Virus record (IMG/VR): IMGVR_UViG_3300005393_000308
Source: a virus
DNA length: 64,000 nucleotides
Direction: 5' to 3' (one strand)
A program made the translations under genes and the position numbers. Below, piece after piece: positions 10,322 to 58,871 of this stretch (within the stretch, counting starts at the first letter, position 1; each line of letters begins with the position of its first letter). Below the pieces are notes generated by a model. The model was given only the letters and a program-made list of their open reading frames with translations, was not told the DNA's origin and ran no database searches.

Positions 10322-10665
10322 GTTCCTTCCCTTCCTTTCGGAACCCCTTACGGGGCCAGTGACGGGTCCAGGCGGACTCTCCTGGACCGCTCCCCTCGCC
10401 AATGTCGCCAGCCGGTCATCTGCTCCGGCCCGTTTCGCCCACACCCCAAAGGTTGTCTGCAGCCGTAGCTTCCAGGGTCCGGGACTGGGGAAGCATCCCG
10501 GAGTGGGTCTTTAGCCTGCCAGCAACATAGCGACTTCCTTGTCTTGTCCTTCGGCTCAGCCGCTTAGGCTGGTCATAGACAGGCTTGCGGGGTCATCCCA
10601 GCAAGCCCCCGGCTTTAGCCGTGGGGTCTATGACAAGCCTCGGACTTCAGTCCAGGGTGATTGAC
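10256..10665 (-). mobile_element. Truncated IscB-type IS200/IS605 element with two stacked left ends
   Basis: GTCAATCACCCTGGACTGAAGTCCGAGGCTT (10665-10635) directly followed by GTCATAGACCCCACGGCTAAAGCCGGGGGCTTG; right end missing. Confidence 0.85.
10322..10634 (-). ncRNA. Orphan HEARO/omega RNA
   Basis: Shares GTCATAG..CTATGAC pairing, CCAGCCT, CTGAGCCGAAGGACAAG, GCTA.GTT and TTGGCGAGG blocks with the omega RNA at 43041-43302; lies directly upstream of an iscB start. Confidence 0.75.
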
Positions 10666-33597: not shown

Positions 33598-34230
33598 CTA
33601 CCTCTTAACATACAAGTCTGAGACATTGAACTTGCCCATTAGCTCGCCGTTCTGGTTGAACTCACTGCCACCCTTGAGCGGTGGGAAGGGCTCTACCATA
33701 TAATCGTTGAATTCCAGCGGTTCTATGTCACGCGCCATATAGCTCCACACATTCTCCGTAAACATATCCTCAATAGATATAACCTTACCCTCTTCGAAGG
33801 CTACAGCCCCGTAGATGACGAGCCTGGCGACCCGGCCGTACTCGCTTCCGCCGGTAATAACGATGTCAAACGGAGGGAGTTCGTCACCCTTCAACCTCAT
33901 AATCTTACGCAGGTAGTCCACCTGCATGCGCAGGTTGTTTACGGTGTGCTGCTCGAAGACGGTGAAAATAATTGTCCCAGCTACCCGGCGCTGCCCGCGG
34001 GCGTGACCGCGCACCGAGATCCTGCCCAGGGTGCGCACCTCCTGTACATCACGCAGGATGGAGTATGTAACAGTAGAACACTCTCCCACCACATACGGCG
34101 GCGAACTGGGAAGCAGAATGCTTACCACCATGTCGACGCCCGAGAAAGTGCCGTACCCATAGGGCTTGGTAACTATTCTGTTATCCTTAATTAAAGACTC
34201 GAATATTGGCTCGTTATTAGTAGTAGCCAT
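33598..34230 (-). CDS. Tail tube-like paralogue 2
   Basis: TFSGVDMVV, VRTLGR..RGHARGQRRVAGTIIFTVF, LPPFDI..EYG, YMARDIEP. Confidence 0.7.
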   Translation of the reverse strand: MATTNNEPIFESLIKDNRIVTKPYGYGTFSGVDMVVSILLPSSPPYVVGECSTVTYSILRDVQEVRTLGRISVRGHARGQRRVAGTIIFTVFEQHTVNNLRMQVDYLRKIMRLKGDELPPFDIVITGGSEYGRVARLVIYGAVAFEEGKVISIEDMFTENVWSYMARDIEPLEFNDYMVEPFPPLKGGSEFNQNGELMGKFNVSDLYVKR

Positions 34231-34281: not shown

Positions 34282-36074
34282 TTAGGTTACAACTGGCAGC
34301 GGTTCGAGACTGCCGGTCCCGGAGTAAACCCCGCTGATGATAGGAGAAACGCGGCGTGCGACAAAGGTCATCTGGCGTTCCATAACGATGGTGTCCACGT
34401 TAACACCGCTGCCTTCATTTAAGATCTCGGCGTCGTAGATCTTCTGGAACGCCGCCTGCCCATACTCATTGGAAAATGTCATCATAATATCAAACGGAGG
34501 GACAGTATCGACGTACAGAATGTTTTCTGGCCTAATTAAACCAAATCCAGGCGGGACATTGATCTTCTCGTATGTCCTAAGATCTGAGCCGACAGTTTGT
34601 GTTTGCTTCTCGCCAGTAGCACTATTGGCTGCGTTATTCCAGCCGGACATTTCCAGCGCATTGGTCCTGTCTTCGACGCGTTTGATAATGTTGCCGGCGG
34701 CTGTGAACATGGTTGGCGGAGCAAAGGATTGCCAGTTTTCTTTGTCCTCCACCAGGGCCTGCAATAAGGCATCACGGTTAAACACAGCAAAGATCAGAGC
34801 ACTAAACCCAGTAATTTCTTACCGGCGTGGACTATACCTTCACCCACCACTTAGCCCCGCATGGCTTAGGTGGGGTGCGGCGTTTATGGCGCCCATAGAT
34901 TAGGTTATTCGCCCAAGGTCACCATCCAACTGGAGGTAGTTTTGGCAGATCTTATACTTTCGTGCAAGATAGAGTGTAGTACCATCATATAACCAGCCAA
35001 GCAACTACTGGTGTAAAGGGTCTAGTAAACTGGTTATTAACCCTTCATAACTACCTCCGGTTAAGTCTCTACATGCCTTAAGATGGAGAAGTGCGGTAGT
35101 CCATCTTTTAGCACTCGGTATTACCATACCACTACTACTAGCGGGTTAGGTTTCACCGATAGAGCCGCATTTTACCTTAAGGATTGCTCCTTAAGGGAGC
35201 CTCTATCTTGACCCAGCAATTCCGCGTTTACCCAAGTACCTCCACCCTTTCGAGTGGCTCAGAGTACATCACTATCCTGGACGGGAGCAGCCCGGGATAC
35301 GGTGCGTATTATAGCGATACATAGATTTGGGCTGTGTGTAGAACATATAACCCAGGTATCACTATACGAACAGGCAACATCTGTGAGAAGACACTGGAAA
35401 CTCCCAATCACAGACTTCCTCCTGTTCAACTCGTTGCAGAGCCGTTGCAGTCGGCAGTTAGTTAATTAACTGCCCGTCGCACTCCTCAGGGTTGCCGTGG
35501 GTATGAACCTTTAGGTTTCCCTGATGTAAGCACCGTTTTCCATACGCATTACTGTATATGGCCGCAGTTATCTACGGCTGAATGAACGCGGATCGGGCGA
35601 TCCGAGGGTATAGCAAGTGCCCTCTTGTTTCCAAGAGGCTTGGACTATATCACCACCTGCCATAATGACAGGGCGCTGCATATTATGCATGGCTACCAGC
35701 AAGCCGCTGCATCCTGCTTTGCACAGTTACTTTGAATCATTACGGGATCAAGTGGATTTGCAACTGCTCTTGACTGGTAATTTCCCGTAATAGCAATCGT
35801 GCAAATACACAGAGTCTCTACGGGGCCAATTACGGCTTCCCTCGGGGTTACCTACCAAACTGATGCATGGTTTGGGTTTCCCCGATATTAGCAGCGTTAT
35901 TCAAGCAGCGTCGCCACTGCAGGCCGCCTACTTGACGGGTACTTTTTCCCTCTGGATGTTCCATGTAATCTGCTGTAGTTCGCCTATGACACGCTTCCCG
36001 AAGCTGACGATAAGGTCGGCTCCGGAGAAGCTGGTCAGCGTCCTTGTGTATTCCTGGTTAGTAGCACCAGCCAT
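34282..36074 (-). CDS. Major tail tube protein, spliced: exons 36074-35935, 35613-35574, 35232-35211, 34799-34282 (239 aa)
   Basis: Joined exons read ..REKVPV/YTLGSPDPRSFSR/GKRGIAGS/LIFAVFNRDAL.., collinear with tube paralogue 2; 140+40+22+518 = 720 nt in frame; strong RBS; follows sheath. Confidence 0.92.
34800..35210 (-). ncRNA. Group I intron 3 (411 nt, no ORF)
   Basis: 5' exon ends in U; ATCGGTGAAACC, GGTAATACCGAG, GTAGAGACT, AAGGTATAGTCC; terminal G restores TCT CTG (Ser-Leu). Confidence 0.88.
35233..35573 (-). ncRNA. Group I intron 2 (341 nt, no ORF)
   Basis: P1 GCCGUAG-AUAA-CUGCGGC with U.G at the splice site; ATCAGGGAAACC, GGCAACCCTGAG, GCAACGAGT, GATGTACTC; terminal G. Confidence 0.88.
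35614..35934 (-). ncRNA. Group I intron 1 (321 nt, no ORF)
   Basis: 5' exon ends in U, intron ends in G; P1 CCGUC/GGCGG with U.G; ATCGGGGAAACCC, GGTAACCCCGAG, GTAGAGACT, GATATAGTCC core elements. Confidence 0.9.
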
Positions 36075-36102
36075 ATCTTGTTTTCCTCCTTTACGGCGCC
36101 GT

Positions 36103-43040: not shown

Positions 43041-43302
43041 TACGTCGGCTTTCTCGGGTTTCCCCGGTCAAGTGAGCCTCGCCAAGGTTATCCCGGCTTT
43101 TGCATCCAGCACACTGGCTTCAACCCCGTATGCCTGTTTAATGCCGGACGACAGAGCCTGGAGCTGGCTCGCGCACCCCAGGGTGTCGTGACCGGGATAA
43201 CGTAGCATCCTCGTCGCCTTGTCCTTCGGCTCAGATGCTGAGGCTGGTCATAGCCGAGCTTGCTTGTAGCAAGCCCCCGACTTTAGTCGTGGGGTCTATG
43301 AC
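43041..43302 (-). ncRNA. HEARO/omega RNA of the intact iscB element
   Basis: About 260 nt between the left end and the iscB RBS; GTCATAG/CTATGAC pairing, GCTACGTT, CCAGCTCCAGGCTCTG, CCTTGGCGAGG blocks. Confidence 0.85.
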
Positions 43303-58795: not shown

Positions 58796-58871
58796 TGGAG
58801 CCGCCAGCAGGACTCGAACCCGCAACCTTACCCTTACAAGAGGTCTGCTCTACCAGTTGAGCTATGGCGGC
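58796..58871 (-). tRNA. tRNA-Thr (anticodon TGT) with encoded CCA
   Basis: GCCGCCA/TGGCGGC acceptor, GCTC/GAGC D arm, CT-TGT-AA loop, GCGGG-TTCGAGT-CCTGC T arm; 76 nt. Confidence 0.93.

Follow-up and report, generated by a model that had tools for sequence, protein, structure and literature searches.

The closest described counterpart of the gene analysed here is orf142 of phage Twort, which carries three subgroup IA2 introns with an exon of only 23 nt between introns 2 and 3, and for which exon skipping has been reported (PMC10136302). Self-splicing of orf142 was described by Landthaler & Shub 1999, as summarised in PMC10136302 and PMC11878797, and the gene is now recognised as a tail tube gene (PMC11878797). 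Our scan of the Twort genome returned three RF00028 matches (63.6, 97.4 and 100.9 bits) right after the sheath gene. Another precedent was provided by Tourasse & Kolsto 2008 (PMC2504315), who reported one group I intron in the tube gene of BwK1, a prophage found in Bacillus weihenstephanensis/mycoides KBAB4 (plasmid pBWB401) and in B. cereus B4264. That intron targets the most conserved 23 nt that the gene has in common with phage 0305phi8-36 (PMC2504315). Multiple introns in one phage gene are also on record for the Bastillevirinae, whose DNA polymerase and terminase genes carry up to three introns each (PMC11878797).

Here we describe a gene on the minus strand of a 64,000-nt viral DNA stretch (IMG/VR record IMGVR_UViG_3300005393_000308; hereafter 'the window'). 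Very probably, it is the orthologue of the gp140 tail tube gene in a giant phage resembling 0305phi8-36, and its coding sequence contains three group I introns of IA architecture that lack ORFs and are unrelated to one another. A preliminary description of this DNA had proposed three such introns in a tube gene and had named Twort as a precedent for the arrangement. The precedent stands and is closer than was claimed, since orf142 is itself a tail tube gene; what had been missed is the 2008 report of a group I intron in the same gene family as the one in the window (PMC2504315).

Exons and identity of the tail tube gene

The listing of open reading frames places the start of the tube gene at the ATG at 36074, from which an ORF of 48 codons (36074-35928) runs into a stop codon, and a 167-aa ORF (34785-34282) lies 1.1 kb downstream. 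As anticipated in the preliminary description, automated annotation misses the gene: the public call on an identical contig gives only the 48-aa and 167-aa fragments. When the four exons listed in Table 1 are joined, however, they form 720 nt that encode 239 amino acids in frame and without an internal stop. The exon coordinates, the lengths of the intervening segments, the U that precedes each segment and the G that closes it are all present on the minus strand as originally proposed. The three introns sit within 62 nt of coding sequence and interrupt it in phase 2 (Val47), phase 0 (Arg60/Gly61) and phase 1 (Ser68). Each carries an in-frame stop 2-3 codons past its 5' splice site, an arrangement that is common among such introns according to Tourasse & Kolsto 2008 (PMC2504315).

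Table 1. Features of the tube locus, with positions in the window, and intron insertion sites in the tube gene family.
Feature	Position	Strand	Details
Tail sheath gene, 707 aa	36103..38226	(-)	directly upstream of the tube gene; phrog_16991, E = 3e-188; synteny with 0305phi8-36 gp139
Ribosome-binding site, AGGAGG core	36081..36088	(-)	read from sequence; about 9 nt before ATG
Exon 1, 140 nt	35935..36074	(-)	codons 1-46 and 2 nt of Val47; ends in U
Intron 1, 321 nt, ORF-less, group I (IA-like)	35614..35934	(-)	RF00028 33.6 bits; guide sequence 35928-35924; P7 strands 35818-35813 and 35646-35642; UAG at intron nt 5-7
Exon 2, 40-nt micro-exon	35574..35613	(-)	completes Val47, then YTLGSPDPRSFSR
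Intron 2, 341 nt, ORF-less, group I (IA-like)	35233..35573	(-)	RF00028 17.9 bits, weak; guide sequence 35567-35561; P7 strands 35433-35429 and 35265-35260; UAA at intron nt 4-6
Exon 3, 22-nt micro-exon	35211..35232	(-)	GKRGIAG and first base of Ser68
Intron 3, 411 nt, ORF-less, group I (IA-like)	34800..35210	(-)	RF00028 32.5 bits; guide sequence 35201-35197; P7 strands 35069-35064 and 34833-34829; UAG at intron nt 6-8
Exon 4, 518 nt	34282..34799	(-)	completes Ser68, then 171 codons and stop
Tube paralogue, 210 aa, uninterrupted	33598..34230	(-)	syntenic with 0305phi8-36 'tail tube paralog'
Insertion site Ile40			L006-A (62.4 bits); probably L009/L010 (LAGLIDADG)
Insertion site Val47			window intron 1, L003, L004
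Insertion site Gly51/Ser52			L002 = L011 (LAGLIDADG)
Insertion site Arg60/Gly61			window intron 2, L101
Insertion site Gly61/Lys62			L008, L070, published KBAB4 intron
Insertion site Ser68			window intron 3, L100, L006-B (LAGLIDADG)
Insertion site ~residue 173			L042 (85.1 bits)
Insertion site ~residue 180			L069, putative

Comparison with protein families shows what the micro-exons contribute. In a search with the phrog_9206 profile, the product of exon 1 matches positions 14-56 (E = 5e-11) and that of exon 4 matches positions 78-173 (E = 2.5e-26), and the gap of 21 positions between them equals the 13 + 8 residues that the two micro-exons restore. The profile itself carries the wrong label 'major head protein'. 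The best phage match by tblastn is ORF140 (gp140) of Bacillus phage 0305phi8-36, with 47% identity in exon 4, and the record of that phage annotates gp140 as 'identified as virion protein by mass spectrometry; tail tube'. An alignment with intron-less homologues had been suggested as a check on the gene model. In such an alignment with gp140 and the intron-less metagenomic homologues P0003, P0004 and P0008-P0010, the joined 239-aa product proved gapless across all three junctions; it is also collinear with the 210-aa paralogue, as had been claimed. A protein search with exon 4 yielded 186 homologues, most of them full length and some N-terminally short.

Gene order points in the same direction. 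In 0305phi8-36 the order is sheath paralogue, gp138, sheath, tube and tube paralogue, and the window matches it, including a sheath-like 519-aa protein and a phrog_20284 protein; two tube-like paralogues are found just downstream of the tube gene. The AlphaFold2 model built for P0003, an intron-less homologue, is of moderate confidence (pLDDT 61.5) and leaves residues 42-62 unstructured. Its best Foldseek matches are the tube of phage Mystique, XkdM and an R-type bacteriocin tube, all of them weak (E > 0.02), and a profile search of PDB sequences with the tube protein family gave no match. At the DNA level, 50,697 phage records searched with blastn likewise contained no match to the region. 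By protein similarity and synteny, we assign the gene as an orthologue of the gp140-type myovirus tail tube protein of 0305phi8-36, and its source is probably an uncultured giant phage of that kind with a Bacillota host.

The divergence of the exons from those of relatives is informative as well. Exon 1 has 96% amino-acid identity to exon 1 of a related locus, L003, and exon 2 differs from its L003 counterpart by synonymous changes only. Over 36 codons that span the junctions, the counts of synonymous and nonsynonymous differences are 12 and 0 (L003), 18 and 3 (L101) and 13 and 5 (L004). Such a predominance of synonymous differences is what translation of the 40-nt and 22-nt pieces in the spliced frame should leave, and the micro-exons are under purifying selection.

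Group I structure of the three introns

The gathering threshold of the Rfam group I intron model RF00028 is 50 bits, and a scan of the window at this threshold reported no intron. A permissive covariance-model scan was also run on a 2.3-kb region and on the whole window. In the 2.3-kb search, the full model (positions 1-253) was aligned to each of the three segments with the scores given in Table 1 and E-values of 3e-6, 0.15 and 6e-6 for introns 1, 2 and 3, and nothing else nearby matched; the whole-window E-values are 8e-5 for intron 1 and 2e-4 for intron 3. The covariance-model search that had been proposed as a check therefore produced end-to-end matches to all three segments, but every one of them lies below the gathering threshold. 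The match of intron 2 (17.9 bits, E = 0.15) would be insufficient alone. For comparison, the published KBAB4 tube intron scores only 42.2 bits, which indicates that sub-threshold scores are normal for insertion-rich introns of this type, and introns in relatives of the gene reach 51.5, 62.4 and 85.1 bits. The 50-bit threshold is conservative for such introns.

A complete P2-P9 core together with P7.1 and P7.2 is present in each intron, which substantiates the P/Q/R/S-like core blocks noted previously. A P1 that includes the U.G pair is likewise found in all three, with 5, 7 and 5 canonical pairs in introns 1, 2 and 3, respectively, and the exon side of P1 comprises only 4 base pairs in introns 1 and 3. 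The corresponding P10 helices have 4, 3 and 5 pairs. Throughout the pair lists of P1-P9, P7.1 and P7.2, all pairs are canonical save three single mismatches (in P5 of intron 1 and in P2 and P8 of intron 2), and these three positions are paired in relatives. P3, P4, P7 and J8/7 are intact and conserved in the three introns, J4/5 reads AAA, and the J8/7-P7 segment is GAUAUAGUCC-like.

In the Rfam alignment, all three introns have 124-182 nt inserted after the 5' strand of P7 and before the 3' strand of P3, and the inserted sequence forms helices that show covariation. A P7.1/P7.2 insertion at this position is a hallmark of subgroup IA. We therefore class the introns as IA-like (probably IA2-like), an assignment based on the layout of the P7.1 and P7.2 helices. 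The longest ORF within any intron in the window has 71 codons' worth of amino acids (71 aa), and none of the intronic ORFs has a Pfam match. Intron boundaries are set independently by the intron-less alleles. A recent duplication of one intron into the other sites can be ruled out, as the three are mutually dissimilar and have only core motifs of 15-28 nt in common. Inteins and translational bypass are ruled out by stops in all frames and by the ribozyme cores.

Homologues of each intron were found at the same site in relatives. Intron 1 occurs as the only intron of the tube gene in L003 and in L004. The L003 copy is approximately 87% identical to that of the window and contains an internally deleted remnant of an HNH ORF, and the L004 copy carries an ORF for a 321-aa HNH-repeat endonuclease at the tip of P7.1; no trace of the HNH ORF was found in intron 1 of the window. 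Placed in the order L004, L003 and window, these alleles resemble stages of the classic cycle in which an endonuclease is gained, decays and is lost. In P9 of intron 1, a U-A pair is replaced by C-G in both relatives.

For intron 2, the homologue in L101 is again the only intron of its gene; it resides at the same site, is 81% identical, and was not detected by RF00028 in a 36-kb scan. The two copies differ by 6 compensatory changes, 9 one-sided changes and 1 disruptive change, and substitutions affect 12.8% of paired versus 23.7% of unpaired positions. When the pair was submitted to RNAalifold, P1 (with U.G), P2, P3, P4, P5, P6a, P7.1, P7.2, P8 and P9 were recovered, and 8 pairs were counted as altered on both sides.

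The homologue of intron 3 in L100 is 87% identical over the last 149 nt, the L100 contig beginning within the intron, and the comparison gives 2 compensatory, 2 one-sided and 0 disruptive changes. A LAGLIDADG-bearing intron occupies the same site in L006. Placing the 3' splice site of intron 3 at 34808 instead, where the Rfam alignment ends, was rejected, since this gives an in-frame stop, whereas 34800 fits both the intron-less alleles and L100. Compensatory changes were observed in P7.1, P7.1a, P7.2, P8 and P9; with two or three sequences in each comparison, this covariation is supportive but not statistically strong. The original proposal of three ORF-less group I introns is thus upheld by several types of evidence, namely the covariance model, the core structure (drawn manually and with RNAalifold), covariation and the nucleotide-exact presence or absence of the introns in relatives.

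Insertion sites in the tube gene family

Exons were mapped in approximately 100 related loci. Most tube genes in this family are uninterrupted, and where inserts are present they cluster (Table 1). Codons 40-68 form the most conserved part of the protein and correspond to the disordered region of the structure model. One relative, L006, has two introns in a single tube gene. The HNH-repeat and LAGLIDADG identities of proteins encoded within introns of relatives were confirmed by Pfam. Two loci, L069 and L070, have intron-sized gaps with no Rfam match at E <= 1, and the junctions of L070 fit the rule of a preceding U and a terminal G. A further candidate, L007, had appeared as a split gene in a protein call and was rejected because the gene is merely cut by the contig end. 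L054 shows an apparent split in tblastn, with no intron match and with overlapping query ranges.

What is new relative to published cases is the combination of three introns, the particular three positions that they occupy and a hot spot with eight or more insertion sites in one gene family. The family constitutes a natural experiment: some of its alleles have a single intron, introns exist with an endonuclease gene, with a decayed one or with no ORF, and eight or more sites are represented. It should be useful for examining the homing cycle, the competition between sites, and the ways in which ribozymes arranged in tandem avoid exon skipping. There is also a practical consequence for annotation. 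Gene callers split an essential virion gene into pieces of 48 and 167 aa and overlooked two micro-exons, and pipelines that lack sensitive intron models will under-call structural genes of giant phages.

Predicted splicing and comparison with known systems

From the anatomy of the gene, the structure of its introns, their homology to endonuclease-bearing and single-intron alleles and the coding constraint on the micro-exons, a course of catalysis, of splicing in vivo and of the events that led to this arrangement can be predicted. Each intron would fold by itself after late transcription. In P1, the guide sequence would pair with the last 4-5 bases of the exon, placing a U.G wobble at the cleavage site, and free guanosine bound in P7 would attack the 5' splice site. 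The terminal G of the intron would then take the place of this guanosine, P10 would align the next exon, and the exons would be ligated. Only the triple-spliced mRNA would encode the 239-aa tube protein, and the early in-frame stops may serve to keep ribosomes off the ribozyme cores. As to origin, homing may have brought the introns into the part of the coding sequence that is conserved best, with a later loss of their endonuclease genes.

Splicing might be other than constitutive alone: if exons were skipped, or if a cofactor, GTP or Mg limited the rate, the three introns could act as a throttle or timer on the supply of tube protein. We regard this as improbable. The 5' exons of introns 1 and 2 both end in CCGU and the two guides, GCGG and GCGGC, are near-identical, so that intron 2 could attack the 5' splice site of intron 1 and some skipping of exon 2 is conceivable; skipping across the 23-nt exon has been observed in Twort orf142 (PMC10136302). 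However, any skipped product would be out of frame and end after 53-61 aa, and skipping would therefore be mere waste. In addition, the sequence holds no sign of a sensor, and the three introns do not resemble one another, in contrast to the two near-identical Twort introns that are thought to cooperate in skipping. A bolder version of this idea, to which we likewise give little credence, would treat the segment of about 90 nt that comprises codons 40-68 as an exceptional landing zone for which at least six group I introns with different endonucleases compete. The stacking of three introns, two of them with near-identical guides, would then have led to obligatory co-operative or ordered splicing that is used to time or dose the tube protein, an independent re-invention of the Twort arrangement.

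It is very improbable that the introns are real by descent but that at least one of them no longer splices, the gene being a decaying pseudogene while one or both downstream paralogues supply the tube. Decay of this kind could account for the sub-threshold Rfam scores (that of intron 2 above all), for the helix mismatches specific to the window copies and for the loss of all endonuclease ORFs, and paralogues are at hand. Nevertheless, the four exons have kept an intact reading frame with neither a stop nor a frameshift, the junction codons differ from those of relatives almost only by synonymous changes, and the core elements P3, P4, P7 and J8/7 have been retained. Nor are the paralogues replacements, because they form a separate conserved lineage that every relative, 0305phi8-36 among them, has next to an intact tube gene.

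Least probable of all is an assembly chimera, in which co-occurring single-intron strains were joined across shared exons of 40 and 22 nt. In its favour, the contig derives from a metagenome, single-intron relatives exist, and both micro-exons fall short of typical read lengths and of many k-mers used in assembly. The one further copy found, on the JGI contig L005, is 100% identical and could stem from the same assembly, so that it lends no independent support to the physical linkage of the three introns. Against a chimera, the introns and exons of the window are similarly diverged (about 13-20%) from single-intron relatives of other samples, ordinary reads of 100-150 nt span a 22-nt exon, contigs built with large k should rarely join unsupported paths, and two introns in one tube gene occur independently in L006, as do three in Twort.

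A gp140-type tube gene interrupted by three group I introns reveals no new mechanism, and cases of this kind are already known from Twort and from relatives of the gene. It resembles the T4 genes td, nrdB and nrdD (sunY) and the multi-intron genes of the Bastillevirinae in that these also harbour subgroup IA phage introns with P7.1 and P7.2 that home into conserved codons, and the tube gene family appears to share with the introns of T4 and the Bastillevirinae a cycle of endonuclease gain, decay and loss. The T4 and Bastillevirinae introns, however, reside almost only in genes for nucleotide metabolism, DNA polymerase and terminase, whereas those in the window interrupt a gene for an abundant virion structural protein and, unlike the others, are packed three within 62 coding nucleotides.

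The BwK1 tube gene is nearer in kind. It also belongs to the gp140 family, and its intron is inserted in the same highly conserved RSFSRGKRGIAGS-coding segment, is built in a similar way, with a stop codon in frame where the intron begins, and has a sub-threshold Rfam score (42.2 bits). It differs in being a single intron at Gly61/Lys62, 3 nt downstream of the position of intron 2 in the window, where this site is empty, and its sequence is unrelated to the window introns outside the core.

In overall arrangement the closest match is Twort. There, as in the window, the tail tube gene of a myovirus follows the sheath gene directly and has three subgroup IA introns without ORFs close together, and the micro-exon between introns 2 and 3 measures 23 nt in Twort and 22 nt in the window. 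Splicing has been demonstrated experimentally in Twort, whereas it is predicted for the introns described here, and the RF00028 scores are 64-101 bits in Twort but 18-34 bits in the window. Introns 2 and 3 of Twort are near-copies of each other, whereas the three in the window share only core motifs. The Twort introns are found near the C-terminus, at about codon 112 of 142, whereas those in the window fall in codons 47-68 of 239, and the Twort tube has no detectable sequence similarity to the window family (profile search, E > 1). These last two differences argue that the resemblance is convergent, and the gene in the window is a second, independent myovirus tail tube gene that combines three group I introns with an exon of about 22 nt.

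Shared splice-site features of introns 1 and 2

The 5ʹ exon ends of the first two introns in the tube gene are identical (CCGU; window 35939-35935 and 35578-35574), and their internal guide sequences are nearly so (35928-35924 for intron 1 and 35567-35561 for intron 2). Cross-recognition between these two introns, which would result in the skipping of exon 2, is mechanistically possible.

An endonuclease reading frame within intron 1 of relatives

In the related locus L004, the tip of the intron 1 P7.1 helix holds the start of an HNH endonuclease ORF, comprising AGGAGG and an AUG codon (L004:1195-1225). A CCUCCU sequence located directly 3ʹ of this ORF can pair with its AGGAGG ribosome-binding site (L004:1195-1225 and 2160-2200), which suggests that endonuclease expression is controlled by RNA structure. 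Intron 1 of a second relative, L003, likewise presents AGGAGG and AUG in the P7.1 tip together with a pairing-capable CCUCCU.

Tube-like proteins and other elements of the window

The tube paralogue in the window stands alone (210 aa), whereas its counterpart in the IMG/VR relative L002 (L002:4595-5722, 375 aa) carries an N-terminally fused region resembling N-acetylmuramoyl-L-alanine amidase. A third tube-like protein, whose repeats match Pfam PF07833 (E = 2e-10), is kept in relatives. Judging from two HEARO matches, the contents of the phage genome also include IS200/IS605-type IscB elements.

Additional features of the window
Feature	Position	Strand	Evidence
HEARO (IscB omega RNA)	43067-43302	-	Rfam 137.4 bits, above gathering score
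HEARO (IscB omega RNA)	10384-10634	-	Rfam 103 bits, above gathering score
tRNA gene (single)	58799-58871	-	Rfam 63.2 bits
Third tube-like protein, 452 aa	32231-33589	-	Tube N-terminal motif, then copper-amine-oxidase N-terminal-like repeats

Annotation of tube genes and their introns

Window segments 36074-35931 and 34797-34285 match phrog_9206, a PHROG family labelled ‘major head protein’, and this label is repeated in RefSeq. The family includes gp140 of phage 0305phi8-36, which is described in its GenBank record as tail tube. The label looks like a propagated mis-annotation.

Group I introns also interrupt tube genes elsewhere. The relative L006 has two within its copy of this tube gene (L006:34-409 and 493-1746), separated by an 83-nt exon; one is ORF-less (62.4 bits) and the other carries a LAGLIDADG ORF. 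The published BwK1 tube intron (Tourasse & Kolsto 2008, PMC2504315), on Bacillus mycoides KBAB4 plasmid pBWB401 (389502-390730), scores 42.2 bits, below the RF00028 gathering threshold, and its locus is still annotated in the plasmid record as separate ‘hypothetical protein’ fragments.
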